This document shows positions 2,235-14,133 of a stretch of DNA of 64,000 nt, piece by piece. A program made the translations under genes and the position numbers. The notes under the pieces were generated by a model. It did no database searches, had not been told where the DNA came from, and worked only from the letters and a program-made list of their open reading frames with translations. How positions within the stretch are numbered: the first letter of the stretch is position 1; every line of letters starts with the position of its first letter. Where the stretch lies: the NCBI RefSeq assembly GCF_056712565.1, contig NZ_CM160072.1; one strand, 5' to 3'.

Positions 2235-3125
2235 TTATTTGGACGTTCTACGCTGCGTATAAATCGCATCCATCACAAAAATTGCCAGCGCCACCCAAAT
2301 AAAGGTGAAAGTTACCATCTTATCGGCACCCGGTTTTTCACCATAAAACGTCACAGCCAGCAGGAACATCAGCGTCGGACCAATGTACTGGAAAAAGCCT
2401 AACGTTGAGAGACGCAGGCGTGTCGCCGCTGCAGTAAAACACAACAGTGGCACGGTGGTGACAATACCGGCGGCGATCAGCAGTAAATTCAGCGACATCG
2501 GGTTTTGCCCCATATGACTGGTTGAGCTGTCGGCAATAGCAAACAGGTAAATCGCCGCCACGGGCAGCAACCACATAGTTTCGATTAACATGCCGGTTTG
2601 CGCTTCAACAGCAATCTTCTTGCGCACCAGGCCGTAGAAAGCAAAACTAAACGCCAGCCCCAGCGCGATGATCGGCAGTGAACCAAAAGTCCACAACTGA
2701 ACCAGCACTCCACATATCGCCAGAATCACCGCCAGCCATTGCATCCGGCGGAATCGCTCGCCGAGGAAAATCATCCCCAGCACAATGTTCACCAGCGGGT
2801 TAATAAAGTAACCAAGGCTCGCTTCCAGCATATGGTGATTGTTCACCGCCCAGATAAACAGTAGCCAGTTGCCGCCAATCAGCACGGCAGAGACTGCCAG
2901 CATAAAAATTTTCTGTGGCGTCTGAATCAGCGTTTTTAAATAGGACCACTGGCGGCAAATGCTCATCAGCACCACCATAAAGAAAAACGACCAGATCACG
3001 CGATGCGTCAGGATCTCATCGGCGGGCACGTAGTAAATCAGTTTGAAGTACGCTGGCGCAATACCCCAAATAAAATAAGCGGCAAGAGCGAGTAATACGC
3101 CCTGCCGCGTTTGTTTTGCATCCAT
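2235..3125 (-). CDS. rarD: RarD, EamA/DMT-family transporter
   Basis: 296-aa polytopic membrane protein; sequence and position (between corA and yigI) match K-12 RarD. Confidence 0.93.
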   Translation of the reverse strand: MDAKQTRQGVLLALAAYFIWGIAPAYFKLIYYVPADEILTHRVIWSFFFMVVLMSICRQWSYLKTLIQTPQKIFMLAVSAVLIGGNWLLFIWAVNNHHMLEASLGYFINPLVNIVLGMIFLGERFRRMQWLAVILAICGVLVQLWTFGSLPIIALGLAFSFAFYGLVRKKIAVEAQTGMLIETMWLLPVAAIYLFAIADSSTSHMGQNPMSLNLLLIAAGIVTTVPLLCFTAAATRLRLSTLGFFQYIGPTLMFLLAVTFYGEKPGADKMVTFTFIWVALAIFVMDAIYTQRRTSK

Positions 3126-3176
3126 CGGGAATACTCATTTTTAATTGGTAACAGCAGTTTACCTGCTTTTATGTCT

Positions 3177-3644
3177 TCAACCTACCATATAGGTGGCGGT
3201 GGCACTGGCAATATAAAGCTGTTCTTCATTGTGTAATTCAACGCGGGCGACGGCGACTTTATTGCCTGCACGTAACAGGCTACTGGTAGCAGTAAAACGC
3301 TCGCCTCTGCCTGGGCGCAGATAATCGACGCGAAGATCAATGGTCCCCATCCGCGATAGCCGCTGGCGTAGTTCATCTTCACTGATGGTTTCGTGGCGGG
3401 TTAAGGTACTTCCCACGCACACCAGACCTGCGGCGACATCCAGCGCCGACGCAATGACCCCGCCGTGTAAAATGCTTTGCGCCCAGTTGCCCACCATCAT
3501 CGGCTGATTTTTAAAGGCCAGCTGTGCGAACTCTTTTTCGTAACGCTCCAGTTCCATCCCCAATGCGCGGTTAAATGGTATGTGATAAACAAACATCTCA
3601 CCCACTAATTTGAGGGCTTGTTCAGCGGTCAGTACGGCAGACAT
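3177..3644 (-). CDS. yigI: Hotdog-fold acyl-CoA thioesterase YigI
   Basis: ORF translation from internal Met [18 protein letters not shown]... (155 aa) matches recalled K-12 YigI; ORF-track start is 6 codons upstream. Confidence 0.88.
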
Positions 3645-3808
3645 AACATCCTTACACTTCATTGGTTAATGAAATGTTGATTTTATGCTTCTTTGTTGTT
3701 GGTTTCTACTTTAGGAAGGGATAACTAACGGCTATGGAGTTAAGTATGTAAAATAGCCCGCAGAAAAATATTCACCTTATCAATAATTCGTTACGGAGAA
3801 CACGAGCG

Positions 3809-4678
3809 ATGCGGACTCTGCAGGGCTGGTTGTTGCCGGTGTTTATGTTGCCTATGGCAGTATATGCACAAGAGGCAACGGTGAAAGAGGTGCATGACGC
3901 GCCAGCGGTGCGTGGCAGTATTATCGCCAATATGCTGCAGGAGCATGACAATCCGTTCACCCTTTATCCTTATGACACCAACTACATCATCTACACCCAA
4001 ACCAGCGATCTGAATAAAGAAGCGATTGCCAGTTACGACTGGGCGGAAAACGCGCGTAAGGATGAAGTAAAGTTCCAGTTGAGCCTGGCGTTTCCGCTGT
4101 GGCGTGGGATTTTGGGGCCAAACTCTGTACTGGGCGCCTCCTACACACAGAAATCCTGGTGGCAGCTTTCTAATAGCGATGAGTCATCACCGTTTCGTGA
4201 AACTAACTACGAACCGCAATTGTTCCTCGGTTTTGCCACGGATTACAACTTTGCTGGCTGGACGCTGCGCGATGTGGAAATGGGCTACAACCACGACTCA
4301 AACGGGCGTTCAGACCCGACTTCCCGCAGCTGGAACCGCCTTTATACCCGCCTGATGGCAGAAAACGGTAACTGGCTGGTAGAGGTGAAGCCGTGGTATG
4401 TGGTGGGGAATACGGACGATAACCCGGACATCACCAAATATATGGGTTACTACCAGCTTAAAATCGGCTATCACCTCGGTGATGCGGTACTGAGCGCGAA
4501 AGGGCAGTACAACTGGAACACCGGTTACGGCGGCGCGGAGTTAGGCTTAAGCTACCCGATCACCAAACATGTGCGCCTTTATACTCAGGTTTACAGCGGT
4601 TACGGCGAATCGCTCATCGACTATAACTTCAACCAGACCCGCGTTGGTGTGGGAGTTATGCTAAACGACCTGTTTTGA
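3809..4678 (+). CDS. pldA: Outer-membrane phospholipase A
   Basis: 289 aa with signal peptide MRTLQGWLLPVFMLPMAVYAQEA and a C-terminal beta-barrel ending ...VGVGVMLNDLF; matches recalled PldA. Confidence 0.95.
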   Translation: MRTLQGWLLPVFMLPMAVYAQEATVKEVHDAPAVRGSIIANMLQEHDNPFTLYPYDTNYIIYTQTSDLNKEAIASYDWAENARKDEVKFQLSLAFPLWRGILGPNSVLGASYTQKSWWQLSNSDESSPFRETNYEPQLFLGFATDYNFAGWTLRDVEMGYNHDSNGRSDPTSRSWNRLYTRLMAENGNWLVEVKPWYVVGNTDDNPDITKYMGYYQLKIGYHLGDAVLSAKGQYNWNTGYGGAELGLSYPITKHVRLYTQVYSGYGESLIDYNFNQTRVGVGVMLNDLF

Positions 4679-8107: not shown

Positions 8108-9130
8108 ATGTTTCAGCAGCAAAAAGACTGGGAAACAAGAGAAAACGCGTTTGCTGCTTTTACCATGGGACCGCTGACTGATTTCTGGCGTCAGCGTGAT
8201 GAAGCAGAGTTTACTGGTGTGGATGACATTCCGGTTCGCTTTGTCCGTTTTCGCGCACAGCACCATGACCGGGTGGTAGTCATCTGTCCGGGGCGTATTG
8301 AGAGCTACGTAAAATATGCGGAACTGGCCTACGACCTGTTCCATTTGGGGTTTGATGTTTTAATCATCGACCATCGCGGGCAGGGACGTTCCGGTCGCCT
8401 GTTAGGCGATCCACATCTCGGGCATGTTAATCGCTTTAATGATTATGTTGATGATCTGGCGGCATTCTGGCAACAGGAGGTTCAGCCCGGTCCGTGGCGT
8501 AAACGCTATATACTGGCACATTCGATGGGCGGTGCGATCTCCACATTATTTCTGCAACGCCATCCAGGTGTATGTGACGCCATTGCGCTAACTGCGCCAA
8601 TGTTTGGGATTGTGATTCGTATGCCGTCATTTATGGCACGGCAGATCCTCAATTGGGCCGAAGCGCATCCACGTTTCCGTGATGGCTATGCGATAGGCAC
8701 CGGGCGCTGGCGCGCGTTGCCGTTTGCTATCAACGTACTGACCCACAGCAGACAGCGATATCGACGTAACTTACGTTTCTATGCTGATGACCCAACGATT
8801 CGCGTCGGTGGGCCGACCTACCATTGGGTACGCGAAAGTATTCTGGCTGGCGAACAGGTGTTAGCCGGTGCGGGTGATGACGCCACGCCAACGCTTCTCT
8901 TACAAGCTGAAGAGGAACGCGTGGTGGATAACCGCATGCACGACCGTTTTTGTGAACTACGCACCGCTGCGGGCCATCCTGTCGAAGGAGGACGGCCGTT
9001 GGTAATTAAAGGTGCGTACCATGAGATCCTTTTTGAAAAGGACGCAATGCGCTCAGTCGCGCTCCACGCTATCGTTGATTTTTTCAACAGGCATAACTCA
9101 CCCAGCGGAAACCGCTCTACAGAGGTTTAA
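8108..9130 (+). CDS. pldB: Lysophospholipase L2
   Basis: 340 aa alpha/beta hydrolase with GHSMGG nucleophile elbow; matches K-12 position. Confidence 0.93.
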   Translation: MFQQQKDWETRENAFAAFTMGPLTDFWRQRDEAEFTGVDDIPVRFVRFRAQHHDRVVVICPGRIESYVKYAELAYDLFHLGFDVLIIDHRGQGRSGRLLGDPHLGHVNRFNDYVDDLAAFWQQEVQPGPWRKRYILAHSMGGAISTLFLQRHPGVCDAIALTAPMFGIVIRMPSFMARQILNWAEAHPRFRDGYAIGTGRWRALPFAINVLTHSRQRYRRNLRFYADDPTIRVGGPTYHWVRESILAGEQVLAGAGDDATPTLLLQAEEERVVDNRMHDRFCELRTAAGHPVEGGRPLVIKGAYHEILFEKDAMRSVALHAIVDFFNRHNSPSGNRSTEV

Positions 9131-9137
9131 ATTTCTT

Positions 9138-9938
9138 ATGTACCAGGTTGTTGCGTCTGATTTAGATGGCACGTTACTTTCTCCCGACCATACGTTATCC
9201 CCTTACGCCAAAGAAACTCTGAAGCTGCTCACCGCGCGCGGCATCAACTTTGTGTTTGCGACCGGTCGTCACCACGTTGATGTGGGGCAAATTCGCGATA
9301 ATCTGGAGATTAAGTCTTACATGATTACCTCCAATGGCGCGCGCGTTCACGACCTCGATGGCAACCTGATTTTTGCTCATAACCTGGATCGCGACATTGC
9401 CAGTGACCTGTTTGGCGTAGTCAACGACAATCCGGACATCATTACTAACGTTTATCGCGACGACGAATGGTTTATGAATCGCCATCGCCCGGAAGAGATG
9501 CGCTTTTTTAAAGAAGCGGTGTTCAAATATGCGCTGTATGAGCCGGGATTGCTGGAGCCGGAAGGCGTCAGCAAAGTGTTCTTCACCTGCGATTCCCATG
9601 AAAAACTTCTGCCACTGGAGCAAGCGATTAACGCTCGCTGGGGCGATCGCGTCAATGTCAGTTTCTCTACCTTAACCTGCCTGGAAGTCATGGCTGGCGG
9701 CGTTTCAAAAGGCCATGCGCTGGAAGCGGTGGCTAAGAAACTGGGCTACAGTCTGAAGGATTGTATTGCGTTTGGTGATGGGATGAACGACGCCGAAATG
9801 CTGTCGATGGCGGGGAAAGGCTGCATTATGGGCAGTGCGCACCAGCGTCTGAAAGATCTGCATCCAGAGCTGGAAGTGATTGGTACTAACGCCGAAGACG
9901 CAGTGCCGCATTATCTGCGTAAGCTCTATTTATCGTAA
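9138..9938 (+). CDS. yigL: Cof-type HAD sugar phosphatase YigL
   Basis: Translation from MYQVVASDLDGTLL (HAD motif I DxDGT), 266 aa; the ORF-track start is a spurious upstream extension overlapping pldB. Confidence 0.92.
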   Translation: MYQVVASDLDGTLLSPDHTLSPYAKETLKLLTARGINFVFATGRHHVDVGQIRDNLEIKSYMITSNGARVHDLDGNLIFAHNLDRDIASDLFGVVNDNPDIITNVYRDDEWFMNRHRPEEMRFFKEAVFKYALYEPGLLEPEGVSKVFFTCDSHEKLLPLEQAINARWGDRVNVSFSTLTCLEVMAGGVSKGHALEAVAKKLGYSLKDCIAFGDGMNDAEMLSMAGKGCIMGSAHQRLKDLHPELEVIGTNAEDAVPHYLRKLYLS

Positions 9939-10013
9939 TCGTTCTTTATTTGGTCAGTTGTCAACCTGATACTTCGCTACAATGGCTACTCGTTAATCAA
10001 AGAGTTTTCCATT

Positions 10014-10913
10014 GTGGCGCTACTTATCATCACCACGATTCTGTGGGCCTTCTCCTTTAGCTTTTATGGCGAGTACCTTGCGGGGCACGTCGATAGCTAT
10101 TTTGCGGTGCTGGTGCGCGTTGGCCTGGCGGCACTCGTTTTTCTGCCGTTTCTGCGTACCCGTGGCAATAGCCTGAAAACGGTCGGCCTGTATATGCTGG
10201 TGGGCGCGATGCAGCTCGGTGTGATGTATATGCTGAGTTTCCGCGCCTATCTCTACCTGACGGTCTCCGAACTGTTGCTGTTCACCGTACTGACGCCGCT
10301 CTACATCACGCTGATTTATGACATCATGAGTAAGCGCCGTCTGCGCTGGGGCTATGCCTTTAGCGCCTTGCTGGCGGTGATTGGTGCCGGGATTATTCGC
10401 TATGATCAGGTCACCGACCATTTCTGGACTGGCTTATTGCTGGTGCAACTCTCCAATATCACTTTTGCCATCGGCATGGTGGGTTACAAACGTCTGATGG
10501 AAACTCGCCCGATGCCGCAGCATAACGCCTTTGCGTGGTTCTATCTTGGCGCGTTCCTGGTGGCAGTGATTGCATGGTTCTTGCTGGGAAATGCGCAGAA
10601 AATGCCGCAAACCACGTTGCAATGGGGCATTCTGGTGTTTCTTGGTGTGGTGGCTTCCGGGATTGGCTACTTTATGTGGAACTACGGCGCGACGCAGGTG
10701 GACGCCGGAACGCTGGGCATTATGAATAATATGCACGTTCCGGCAGGGCTGCTGGTAAACCTGGCTATCTGGCACCAACAGCCGCACTGGCCAACGTTTA
10801 TTACAGGCGCGCTGGTGATCCTGGCCTCACTGTGGGTGCATCGTAAGTGGGTCGCTCCGCGCTCTTCACAAACGGCAGATGATCGCAGGCGTGATTGCGC
10901 GCTGAACGAATAA
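10014..10913 (+). CDS. yigM: EamA-family transporter YigM (biotin transporter BioP)
   Basis: 299-aa 10-TM protein; 3' end overlaps convergent metR as in K-12. Confidence 0.9.
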
Positions 10914-11754
10914 ACGCTTCCGTAATCGGCTGACGCTGCTCGCCATCGCGCACGGCGGCGTACAGTCGGCTCCACAAGCCTTCGCCCAGGGTTTTGGTGA
11001 CCACCAGACCCTGGCGTTCAAAACTCTCCACCACCCAATGCGGTAGTGCGGCAATACCCATCCGTGCGGCAACCATCTGAATCAACAATAAGGTGTTATC
11101 GACGCTTTTCAGTGACGGGCTGACGCCTGCTGGCTGAAGAAAATGCCGCCAGACATCCAGTCGGCTACGCTGCACCGGATAAATCAACAGCGTTTCGCTG
11201 GCGAGGTCTTCCGGCGTGATTCGCGTTTTCGCCGCCAGTGGATGGTCAGGTGCTAACACCAGACGCACTTCATAGTCGAACATCGGCGAATAATGCAGGC
11301 CACTGCGCGGCAGAATATCGGAGGTCATCACCAGATCCAGCTCACCCTGCTGCAACGCGGGCTGCGGGTCAAACGTCACGCCCGATTTAAAATCCATCTC
11401 CACCTGCGGCCAGTTCTTATGGAAATTTTCTAACGCGGGCGTCAGCCACTGAATACAGCTATGGCACTCAATGGCAATGCGCAGGCGCGTCTGCTGCGGT
11501 TCATTGCAGGCTTGCAGTGCCTGGCTGATTTGCGGCAGCACCTGATTCGCCAGTTGCAACAGGATTTCTCCCTGCGGTGTAAACCGAAGCGGCTGGCTTT
11601 TACGCACAAATAGCCGGAAGCCAAGGCGTTGTTCCAGATCGCTAAACTGGTGAGACAGGGCGGATTGCGTTTGATGCAACGTCGCCGCAGCGGCTGCGAG
11701 TGAGCCGCAGTTCCGCAACGCTTGTAGCGTTTTCAGGTGTTTTACTTCGATCAT
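10801..11754 (-). CDS. metR: LysR-type regulator MetR
   Basis: 317 aa with N-terminal HTH; divergent from metE. Confidence 0.95.
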
Positions 11755-11871
11755 GAAAGTCCTTCACTTCGGCATGAATAATTTGCGCTTGAGGAATATA
11801 CAGTAACCGCCAATTATGGATGTGTAAACATCTGGACGGCTAAATACTAAAAATTCCATAAGGGGCATATA
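11755..11871. promoter_or_regulatory. metR-metE divergent control region (expected MetR and MetJ sites; not mapped here)
   Basis: 117-bp intergenic region between divergent metR and metE; assignment by synteny with K-12, individual boxes not resolved by eye. Confidence 0.5.
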
Positions 11872-14133
11872 ATGACAATTCTTAATCACACCCTCGGTTT
11901 CCCTCGCGTTGGCCTGCGTCGCGAGCTGAAAAAAGCGCAAGAGAGTTATTGGGCGGGGAACTCCACGCGTGAAGAACTGCTGGCGGTAGGGCGTGAATTG
12001 CGTGCTCGTCACTGGGATCAACAAAAGCAAGCGGGTATCGACCTGCTGCCGGTGGGCGATTTTGCCTGGTACGATCATGTACTGACCACCAGTCTGCTGC
12101 TGGGTAATGTTCCGCAACGTCATCAGAACAACGATGGTTCGGTAGATATCGACACCCTGTTCCGTATTGGTCGTGGACGTGCACCGACTGGCGAACCTGC
12201 GGCGGCAGCGGAAATGACCAAATGGTTTAACACCAACTATCACTACATGGTGCCGGAGTTCGTTAAAGGCCAACAGTTCAAACTGACCTGGACGCAGCTG
12301 CTGGAGGAAGTGGACGAGGCGCTGGCGCTGGGCCACAAGGTGAAACCTGTGCTGCTGGGGCCGATTACCTACCTGTGGCTGGGTAAAGTGAAAGGTGAAC
12401 AGTTTGATCGCCTGAGCCTGCTGAACGACATTCTGCCGGTTTATCAGCAAGTGCTGGCAGAACTGGCGAAACGCGGCATCGAGTGGGTACAGATTGATGA
12501 ACCCGCGTTGGTACTGGAACTGCCGCAGGCGTGGCTGAACGCATACAAACCCGCTTACGACGCGCTCCAGGGACAGGTGAAACTGCTGCTGACCACCTAT
12601 TTTGAAGGCGTAACGCCAAATCTCGACACGATTACTGCGCTGCCTGTTCAGGGTCTGCATGTCGATCTTGTACATGGTAAAGATGACGTTGCTGAACTGC
12701 ACAAGCGTCTGCCTTCTGACTGGCTGCTGTCTGCGGGTCTTATCAATGGTCGTAACGTCTGGCGCGCCGATCTTACCGAGAAATATGCGCAAATTAAGGA
12801 CATTGTCGGCAAACGCGATTTGTGGGTGGCATCTTCCTGCTCGTTGCTGCACAGCCCCATCGACCTGAGCGTGGAAACGCGTCTTGATGCAGAAGTGAAA
12901 AGCTGGTTTGCCTTCGCCCTGCAAAAATGTCATGAACTGGCATTGCTGCGCGATGCGCTAAACAGTGGTGATACGGCAGCTCTGGCAGAGTGGAGCGCTC
13001 CGATTCAGGCGCGTCGTCACTCTACTCGTGTACATAATCCGGCAGTAGAAAAGCGTCTGGCGGCGATCACCGCCCAGGACAGTCAGCGTGCGAATGTCTA
13101 TGAAGTGCGTGCTGAAGCCCAGCGTGCGCGTTTTAAACTGCCCGCATGGCCGACCACCACGATTGGTTCCTTCCCGCAAACCACGGAGATTCGTACCCTG
13201 CGTCTGGATTTTAAAAAGGGTAATCTCGACGCCAATAACTACCGCACGGGCATTGCGGAACATATCAAGCAGGCCATTGTTGAGCAGGAACGTTTGGGAC
13301 TGGATGTGCTGGTACATGGCGAGGCCGAGCGTAATGACATGGTGGAATACTTTGGCGAGCACCTCGACGGGTTTGTCTTTACGCAAAACGGTTGGGTACA
13401 GAGCTACGGTTCCCGCTGCGTGAAGCCACCGATTGTTATTGGTGACGTTAGTCGTCCGGCGCCGATTACCGTGGAGTGGGCAAAATATGCGCAATCCCTG
13501 ACTGATAAACCGGTGAAAGGGATGTTGACCGGCCCGGTGACTATTCTCTGCTGGTCGTTCCCGCGTGAAGATGTCAGCCGTGAAACCATCGCCAAACAAA
13601 TTGCGCTGGCGCTGCGTGATGAAGTCGCGGACCTGGAAGCCGCTGGAATTGGCATCATTCAGATTGACGAACCGGCATTGCGCGAAGGTTTACCACTGCG
13701 TCGCAGCGACTGGGATGCCTATCTCCAGTGGGGCGTGGAGGCTTTCCGTATCAACGCCGCCGTGGCGAAAGATGACACACAAATCCACACTCACATGTGT
13801 TACTGCGAGTTCAACGACATCATGGATTCGATTGCGGCGCTGGACGCAGACGTCATCACCATCGAAACCTCGCGTTCCGACATGGAGTTGCTGGAGTCGT
13901 TTGAAGAGTTTGATTATCCAAATGAAATCGGTCCTGGCGTCTATGACATTCACTCGCCAAACGTACCGAGCGTGGAATGGATTGAAGCCTTGCTGAAGAA
14001 AGCGGCAAAACGCATTCCGGCAGAGCGTCTGTGGGTCAACCCGGACTGTGGCCTGAAAACGCGCGGCTGGCCAGAAACCCGCGCGGCACTGGCGAACATG
14101 GTGCAGGCGGCGCAGAATTTGCGTCGGGGATGA
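11872..14133 (+). CDS. metE: Cobalamin-independent methionine synthase
   Basis: 753 aa; [22 protein letters not shown]... matches MetE. Confidence 0.97.

Follow-up and report, generated by a model that had tools for sequence, protein, structure and literature searches.

Results

bioP and metR share their coding 3' ends

The window analysed here, 64,000 nucleotides of contig NZ_CM160072.1, carries the biotin transporter gene bioP (yigM) and the regulator gene metR on opposite strands, with the tail of each gene lying beneath the tail of the other (Table 1). The window is 100% identical to Escherichia coli ATCC 11775, where PGAP calls the same two coding sequences, bioP and metR. In K-12 MG1655 the genes lie at 4011076-4011975 (bioP) and 4011863-4012816 (metR), leaving an overlap at 4011863-4011975 that is likewise 113 bp long. 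The gene identities, coordinates and length proposed in a first-pass annotation of this DNA thus agree with the open reading frame list, with PGAP and with K-12. That annotation had also judged the arrangement to be the same as in K-12 and without novelty, which we can only endorse: the MG1655 overlap was described in Côté 2016 (PMC5120140), so that the 113-bp overlap is already annotated and published and hence known.

Within the overlap, codon position 1 of bioP faces position 1 of metR, position 2 faces position 3 and position 3 faces position 2. Because of this register, the wobble position of BioP is the second position of MetR, and vice versa. No re-choice of start codons could abolish the overlap, because it is formed by the 3' ends. 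As for reannotated stop positions, which the first-pass annotation had thought might eliminate it, both stops are read straight from sequence that is common to thousands of E. coli genomes. At the level of sequence, bioP and metR are therefore confirmed as a genuine convergent overlapping protein-coding pair.

Table 1. Features at the bioP/metR locus, in window coordinates
Feature	Position	Strand	Description
bioP (yigM) CDS	10014..10913	+	299 aa, GTG start; open reading frame list and PGAP
bioP stop TAA	10911..10913	+	on invariant MetR codons F281-I282
metR CDS	10801..11754	-	317 aa; LysR-type regulator, divergent from metE; open reading frame list and annotation
metR stops	10798..10803	-	TAA at 10803-10801; second in-frame stop at 10800-10798; under BioP F262-I263-T264
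bioP/metR overlap	10801..10913		113 bp, both stop codons included; BioP residues 263-299 and stop, MetR residues 281-317 and stop
Zone A of overlap	10801..10839		BioP-dominated; core of the last BioP membrane helix (about residues 263-276)
Zone B of overlap	10840..10875		constrained by both genes; holds block 10848-10860
Zone C of overlap	10876..10913		MetR-dominated; encodes MetR residues 281-293, where the regulatory domain ends
metE	11872-14133	opposite to metR	
C-rich, G-poor tract	10960..11097	+ (bioP-sense RNA)	50-185 nt past the bioP stop; C/G 1.5-2.1 in 78-nt windows
C-rich, G-poor tract	10523..10740	- (metR-sense RNA)	60-280 nt past the metR stop; C/G 1.4-2.1

The two proteins and the limits of their domains

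BioP matches the Pfam family EamA (1.9e-22) in two stretches, the match ending at residue 275, and TIGR00950 (309.9 bits), with a match that ends at residue 273. Its AlphaFold2 model consists of ten helices (mean pLDDT 92.3), the last of which spans residues 259-298 with a pLDDT of about 90 up to residue 280 and about 70 thereafter. The predicted ten-helix fold, the two EamA repeats and the position at the K-12 b3827 locus identify it as an EamA/DMT protein, and its role in biotin transport comes from the work of Côté 2016 (PMC5120140). A protein search returned more than 4000 BioP homologues. The distant ones (Vibrio, Microbulbifer, Shewanellaceae and Helicobacter) have 282-296 aa and align no further than E. 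coli residues 275-286. Short forms of 282-291 aa also occur in Serratia species, Gibbsiella, Chania, Regiella, Erwiniaceae and Biostraticola, as well as in some clusters from Salmonella and other Enterobacteriaceae.

MetR combines an N-terminal HTH_1 domain with a LysR_substrate domain (both Pfam), the latter ending at residue 288; it matches the equivalog model NF011950 from end to end (residues 1-317 of 317; 741 bits, cut-off 382) and is encoded divergently from metE, all as expected of MetR, the LysR-type regulator of metE and metH. Two structures set its domain limits: PDB 5fo5 covers residues 1-92 of E. coli MetR, over which the protein of the window is identical to it, and PDB 4ab5, the regulatory domain of Neisseria MetR, aligns to E. 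coli residues 87-296. With a MetR orthologue as the query, more than 4000 homologues were found. Residues 303-317 are poorly conserved among 77 species, and the protein is only 307-312 aa long in Mixta, Rahnella, Pectobacterium, Dickeya, Biostraticola and Citrobacter gillenii. Judged from these naturally short proteins, the tails of both BioP and MetR would be mostly dispensable.

The overlap is nearly invariant in length among Enterobacteriaceae

Of 5425 complete E. coli genomes that gave a match, 5422 have this region with an identity of at least 95%. E. coli Z135-6, which seemed to lack intact bioP and metR, proved to be an assembly artefact in which simple repeats, namely (GA)n, (GGAAT)n, (GGT)n, (CT)n and poly(A), extend over about 1.2 kb. 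We then scanned one genome per species across the Enterobacteriaceae (80 loci, all from this family). An overlap of exactly 113 bp is shared by 76 of the 80 species; the other four have overlaps of 116 bp (two species), 98 bp (one Citrobacter) and 68 bp (one uncultured isolate). The whole gene pair, 1741 bp, aligns free of gaps in 77 of the 78 sequences compared.

Among the lineages sampled outside this family, overlaps were found in Yersinia (113 bp), Dickeya (98 bp), Rahnella and Pectobacterium (95 bp each) and Biostraticola (71 bp). The representative proteins P0124, P0128, P0130, P0140 and P0164 were frameshifted or riddled with errors and were dropped from the comparison of gene contexts. 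A further representative, P0123 (57% identity), proved to be BioP from Dickeya, frameshifted in its central part. The bioP stop and the metR start are 841 nt apart in all overlapping lineages examined. Gene lengths and overlap are thus kept among orthologues, the property by which Pallejà and colleagues tell real overlaps from misannotated 3' ends.

Five lineages keep the two genes apart

Intact bioP and metR genes do not always overlap. In Serratia liquefaciens (MetR 316 aa, BioP 287 aa) they are separated by a 32-bp gap with a hairpin of 10-bp stem followed by GTTTATTT; the hairpin is terminator-like as scored on the metR strand, and a T-rich run on the bioP side was recognised by eye. The spacer amounts to 327 bp with repeated palindromic units in Gibbsiella (MetR 314 aa, BioP 286 aa) and to 476 bp with hairpins and an 82-aa open reading frame in Mixta calida (307 and 282 aa). 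A DUF1456 gene lies between the two in both Pantoea sp. B65 (313 and 287 aa) and Paramixta (312 and 287 aa). In Vibrio and Microbulbifer the bioP homologue does not adjoin metR at all. That five lineages hold the two genes apart argues, on the evidence of gene order, that the overlap is not required.

In Serratia there are signs of how the genes may have come apart. When 48 nt of DNA encoding the MetR tail were compared, in the register of the overlap, with the antisense of the 3' end of the same genome's bioP, 24 of the 48 positions matched. This ties the top score among 9005 windows of the locus, a score that 0.06% of them reach. The matches are distributed over the MetR codon positions as 12, 5 and 7 of 16, with an excess at position 1 (binomial P = 2.8e-4), and position 1 is the sole class constrained in both reading frames. 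In addition, a 24-nt comparison of the Serratia MetR tail with the tails that overlap in Pectobacterium and Rahnella gave 67-71% identity. In the Serratia group, a duplication of about 50 nt together with the gain of a terminator has thus apparently split an ancestral overlap.

The same signature was sought in three Erwiniaceae and not found (8/39, 10/36 and 4/21 matches), and in Gibbsiella the test gave a weak result, with 10, 7 and 3 of 16 matches at the three codon positions. The short BioP tails of Erwiniaceae have the same length as that of Serratia, to which they are weakly similar (14 of 27 nt). Because the duplication test was negative in Erwiniaceae and weak in Gibbsiella, we claim a secondary separation for Serratia only. 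The separated MetR tail of Serratia has kept both its reading frame and its length (316 aa), with a KPL.SQP-like end, which hints that this tail may be of some value to MetR.

Three zones of constraint inside the overlap

When nucleotide diversity is taken site by site across 77 species, the 113 bp fall into three zones (Table 1). In zone A, diversity at BioP wobble sites, which are second positions of MetR, is 0.40, compared with 0.41 in bioP-only sequence, and it is about 0.10 at the two remaining classes of position. By this measure zone A evolves like BioP alone, and the last 13 codons of MetR appear to be under no detectable constraint. Zone C is the counterpart: diversity is 0.27 at MetR wobble sites, which are BioP second positions, against a background of 0.31-0.37, and only 0.006 at MetR second positions, and MetR synonymous diversity lies slightly under the metR-only level. 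This zone would thus evolve essentially like MetR, the last 12 codons of BioP seeming to be weakly constrained.

Between the two, zone B has diversities of 0.06, 0.16 and 0.15 at the three classes of position. At its heart, a block of 13 nt (10848-10860) has a diversity of 0.0 save for one site at 0.17; it encodes W279-V-A-P282 of BioP on the plus strand and A299-E-R-P302 of MetR on the minus strand, residues with a conservation of 0.91-1.00 in the respective proteins. All 13 positions are the first or second codon position of a conserved residue in one protein or the other. Since the zones of diversity agree with the independently derived domain limits, the needed C-terminal core of each gene sits beneath the poorly constrained tail of its partner.

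The BioP tail is weakly constrained rather than neutral, to judge from a few of its sites. Residues R291, R293 and E299 are 94-100% conserved, and the MetR wobble sites 10909 and 10912, which lie under the BioP E299 codon and the stop, are invariant, a state found in just 5% of metR wobble sites. This pattern makes it likely that the BioP tail, or else its TAA stop, is under some selection.

These sites could also be read as part of a broader selection for dual coding, in which each protein needs its C-terminal tail (BioP, for instance, a basic cytoplasmic one and MetR a proline-rich one) and the overlap is kept for that reason. MetR synonymous diversity is indeed lower within the overlap than in metR-only sequence, both at two-fold sites (0.16 vs 0.31) and at four-fold sites (0.23 vs 0.45), and the persistence of the 316-aa MetR in Serratia after separation points the same way. 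However, much of the drop in diversity stems from zone B, the site of the partner's core residues, and in zone A the second positions of MetR are fully as variable as wobble sites. Naturally truncated forms of both tails have, moreover, become fixed in entire genera, and distant BioP homologues have no such tail. We therefore regard selection on two functional tails as an unlikely reason for the retention of the overlap.

Stop codons built from the partner's conserved residues

The motif GAATAAA at the bioP stop is invariant in the 77 species, the TAA being the complement of parts of the MetR F281 (TTT) and I282 (ATT) codons. On the other side, the metR stop (10803-10801) falls on BioP I/L263 and T/I264 and is TAA or TGA in 75 of the 77 species. 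It is followed by a backup stop (10800-10798), which is TAA or TGA in 63 of the 77 and is the one used by both 116-bp overlaps. The length of 113 bp is frozen because each stop occupies first and second positions of codons for conserved partner residues, and because an insertion or deletion within the overlap would shift the frame of both genes.

We infer that the overlap began with the deletion of a spacer. Once bioP and metR abutted without spacer or terminator, each reading frame would have run on into the antisense of its partner until it met a stop. The needed part of BioP would then end near W279-V-A-P282, after helix 10, its last 17 or so residues being read from the strand opposite the closing part of the MetR regulatory domain. 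Likewise, the needed part of MetR would end near A299-E-R-P302, its last 15 or so residues coming from the strand opposite BioP helix 10. Both proteins would impose strong constraint on about 13-20 nt only (10840-10860).

Transcription through the overlap and its termination

The first-pass annotation had pointed out that each mRNA must enter the coding tail of the partner gene. This stands: the two mRNAs are complementary over at least 113 nt because each has to reach its own stop codon. By the same token, the transcripts cannot both end before the overlap, an outcome that the annotation had allowed for, as long as both proteins are made full length. The pair is also among the 165 convergent transcript overlaps that ExcludonFinder (NAR 2025, PMC12288877) lists as present in half or more of 58 MG1655 RNA-seq samples.

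Consensus scans of both strands of 10300-11500 for an intrinsic terminator, including a bidirectional one (a G+C-rich hairpin flanked by an A-run and a U-run), found none in or just past the overlap. Their lone yield was a weak 5-bp stem at 11200-11188 within metR, which occurs at chance frequency. RNA folds of both 3' flanks gave no hairpin followed by a U-run, and an Rfam scan of 9000-12500 returned no match at E-values up to 1. Each strand does carry a C-rich, G-poor tract past the stop codon (Table 1), and these tracts are candidate Rho loading regions. Transcription would then probably be ended by Rho after the ribosomes have left at the stop codons.

For the bioP strand, published data bear directly on this. 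Adams 2021 (PMC7815308, supplementary file 2) report a plus-strand Rho termination region with its peak at K-12 4011704, about position 10642 of the window, and a Rho score of 5.07 (p = 1.3e-12; 800-nt windows on either side). Reads upstream and downstream of it number 98 and 21 without bicyclomycin and 300 and 326 with it (PMC7815308), which shows Rho-dependent termination of bioP-strand transcription in the region. The same tables (PMC7815308) hold one relevant row, that of yigM, and no entry for the metR 3' end; on the metR strand, termination by Rho is our suggestion.

The first-pass annotation had further seen in the overlap a potential for antisense interference linking biotin uptake with methionine regulation. 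Taken as a mechanism, this would make bioP and metR a cis-antisense pair, or convergent excludon, in which colliding polymerases or a duplex of at least 113 bp cut by RNase III couples the two functions. The complementarity of the mRNAs and the absence of an intrinsic terminator to separate them are what such a pair would need. Biotin synthesis consumes S-adenosylmethionine at several steps, and through this use a physiological link can be imagined. The pair also stands on the list of convergent overlaps, in at least half of the MG1655 samples (PMC12288877); this list, however, is built on read coverage only, and an overlap of coding sequences makes the call unavoidable. Other literature on RNase III or double-stranded RNA, and further reports on yigM, held nothing specific to the pair besides ExcludonFinder (PMC12288877).

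Several points speak against such coupling. Synonymous sites in zone A are as free as elsewhere (0.40 vs 0.41), leaving no sign of an additional constraint at the RNA level, and protein coding explains most of the conservation in the overlap. Serratia, Gibbsiella and three Erwiniaceae hold the two genes apart, with a hairpin in the Serratia gap, and bioP-strand transcription is already curtailed by Rho in this region, as the bicyclomycin data indicate. We found nothing in favour of the interference that the annotation had suggested, and with conservation accounted for by coding, separation having occurred in nature and read-through limited by Rho, antisense regulation now seems quite improbable. 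We are a shade more sceptical still of its most specific form, a reciprocal cis-antisense switch in which derepression of metR at low methionine or S-adenosylmethionine would alter biotin uptake, or the reverse. If such a switch did exist, the Serratia group and Erwiniaceae would have lost the coupling and would offer a natural comparison of before and after.

Discussion

The possibility that one stop codon is misplaced by an annotation or sequencing error and that the proteins do not truly overlap can be given next to no weight, since the same stops recur in independent E. coli genomes numbering in the thousands, as well as in 76 of the 80 related species, with neither frameshift nor indel, both proteins match full-length family models, and BioP function is lost in the Keio metR deletion, which is what an extension of bioP under metR would predict. 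In our view the overlap is probably a frozen evolutionary accident: an old tail-to-tail overlap that has been locked in place and has no function as an overlap. As such, the locus is a neat case of how a long convergent overlap persists, with a dispensable tail over the core of the partner and only about 13 nt constrained by both genes. The separation in Serratia provides a natural way to gauge the cost of overlapping coding sequences, a modest gain rather than a new kind of system.

For experimental work, the overlap means that any deletion, transposon insertion or CRISPR edit within the last 113 bp of bioP or metR strikes both genes. Keio deletions retain the last six codons and the stop of the deleted gene. 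By this design, the metR deletion should leave BioP truncated within helix 10, at about residue 269-270, and the yigM deletion would remove MetR from about residue 288 onward. A cut inside helix 10 fits the report of Côté 2016 (PMC5120140), who noted the overlap and found that the Keio metR deletion acts also as a yigM (bioP) mutant. Phenotypes of metR or yigM/bioP knock-outs, those of the Keio collection included, can thus stem from the neighbouring gene, as was shown for metR (PMC5120140).

The closest known system is K-12 itself, where bioP (yigM, b3827) and metR (b3828) are the same genes with the same relative coordinates and the same 113-bp overlap; the overlap shows no difference at all. 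The nearby metR-metE intergenic region does differ, in that K-12 carries an insert of about 122 bp which ATCC 11775 lacks.

Convergent genes that share a bidirectional intrinsic terminator have reportedly been described by Ju et al. in 2019. Like such pairs, bioP and metR are convergent and have no room for separate terminators, and the gap in Serratia liquefaciens contains a terminator-like hairpin. Unlike them, the E. coli genes have no such hairpin at or close to the overlap, and termination appears to be Rho-dependent. The pair also resembles convergent excludons in that its transcripts overlap and that it stands on a published E. coli list (PMC12288877). Excludons, however, combine an overlap of transcripts, usually of their untranslated regions, with mutually exclusive expression, whereas in bioP/metR it is the coding sequences that overlap, and the likeness is one of overlapping transcripts.

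The pair belongs to a rare but recognised class, that of long convergent overlaps. Conserved long convergent (tail-to-tail) gene overlaps in prokaryotes are said to have been treated by Rogozin et al. in 2002. In a survey of 338 genomes, Pallejà 2008 (PMC2478687) considered 54 of 968 overlaps longer than 60 bp to be possibly real, and all 54 are convergent; the main text of that paper (PMC2478687) does not name bioP/metR. Like those cases, bioP and metR overlap by more than 60 bp at their 3' ends, are well characterised and have lengths that match those of their orthologues. According to that survey, conservation of most real cases is limited to very close species (PMC2478687); the bioP/metR overlap, by contrast, spans at least three families of Enterobacterales.

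Invariant wobble sites at the bioP stop codon

Window positions 10909 and 10912, the wobble bases of the MetR codons for I282 and F281, showed no variation in 77 species, a set in which only 5% of metR wobble sites overall were invariant. These same nucleotides double as the second positions of the BioP E299 codon and the bioP TAA stop, respectively. In Serratia, where bioP and metR are separated, the isoleucine equivalent to MetR I282 is encoded by ATC.

Sequences between bioP and metR in other genomes

The Erwiniaceae Pantoea sp. B65 and Paramixta carry a DUF1456 gene that separates metR from bioP. The Mixta calida spacer holds an 82-aa ORF with hairpins on either side and no Pfam match; its N-terminus (MKELSVIEIQAVSGAG…) is one that we take to resemble a double-glycine leader, as of a small secreted peptide. 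The Gibbsiella spacer is filled by 3–4 tandem copies of a ~55–60-bp palindromic unit containing …CCCTCTCCCTGTGGGAGAGGGTTAGGGTGAGGGCCGCAACC…, and the final MetR codons come from these repeat units.

Among the matches listed, Z135-6 (NZ_CP159632.1) was the sole E. coli record with poor bioP-metR coverage. Both genes are truncated there and bridged by ~1.2 kb of simple repeats, comprising (GA)n, (GGAAT)n, (GGT)n, (CT)n and poly(A); the PGAP annotation of this stretch is a 211-aa hypothetical protein. We rejected the break as a biological variant, since it reflects either contamination or an artefact of assembly.

Features at and around bioP and metR in the window and other genomes
Feature	Sequence	Coordinates	Strand
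DUF1456 gene, 158–159 aa	L091 (Pantoea sp. B65 locus)	2851-3327	metR strand
DUF1456 gene, 158–159 aa	L092 (Paramixta locus)	2837-3316	metR strand
82-aa ORF in metR-bioP spacer	L090 (Mixta calida locus)	2912-3160	
Palindromic repeat units in bioP-metR spacer	L095 (Gibbsiella locus)	~2680-2990	
Simple repeats bridging truncated bioP and metR	L002 (Z135-6 locus)	2790-3960	
pldB-yigL region	Window	8108-9938	
ORF call	Window	9012-9938	
metR-metE intergenic	Window	11755-11871	
metR-metE intergenic	L093 (K-12 locus)	2818-3053	

Flanking regions

Upstream of bioP, pldB and yigL lie closely spaced on the same strand. One ORF call begins at an upstream GTG within pldB; the PGAP start of yigL (9138) falls 7 bp past the pldB stop at 9130, and the two genes are therefore tightly packed.

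The metR-metE intergenic region measures 117 bp in the window strain versus 236 bp in K-12, whose extra ~122 bp, corresponding to window position ~11848, is absent from ATCC 11775. This K-12 insert contains an imperfect palindrome (…CACCCCGGTCACTTACTTCAGTAAGCTCCCGGGGAT…) and resembles an ERIC/IRU repeat element.
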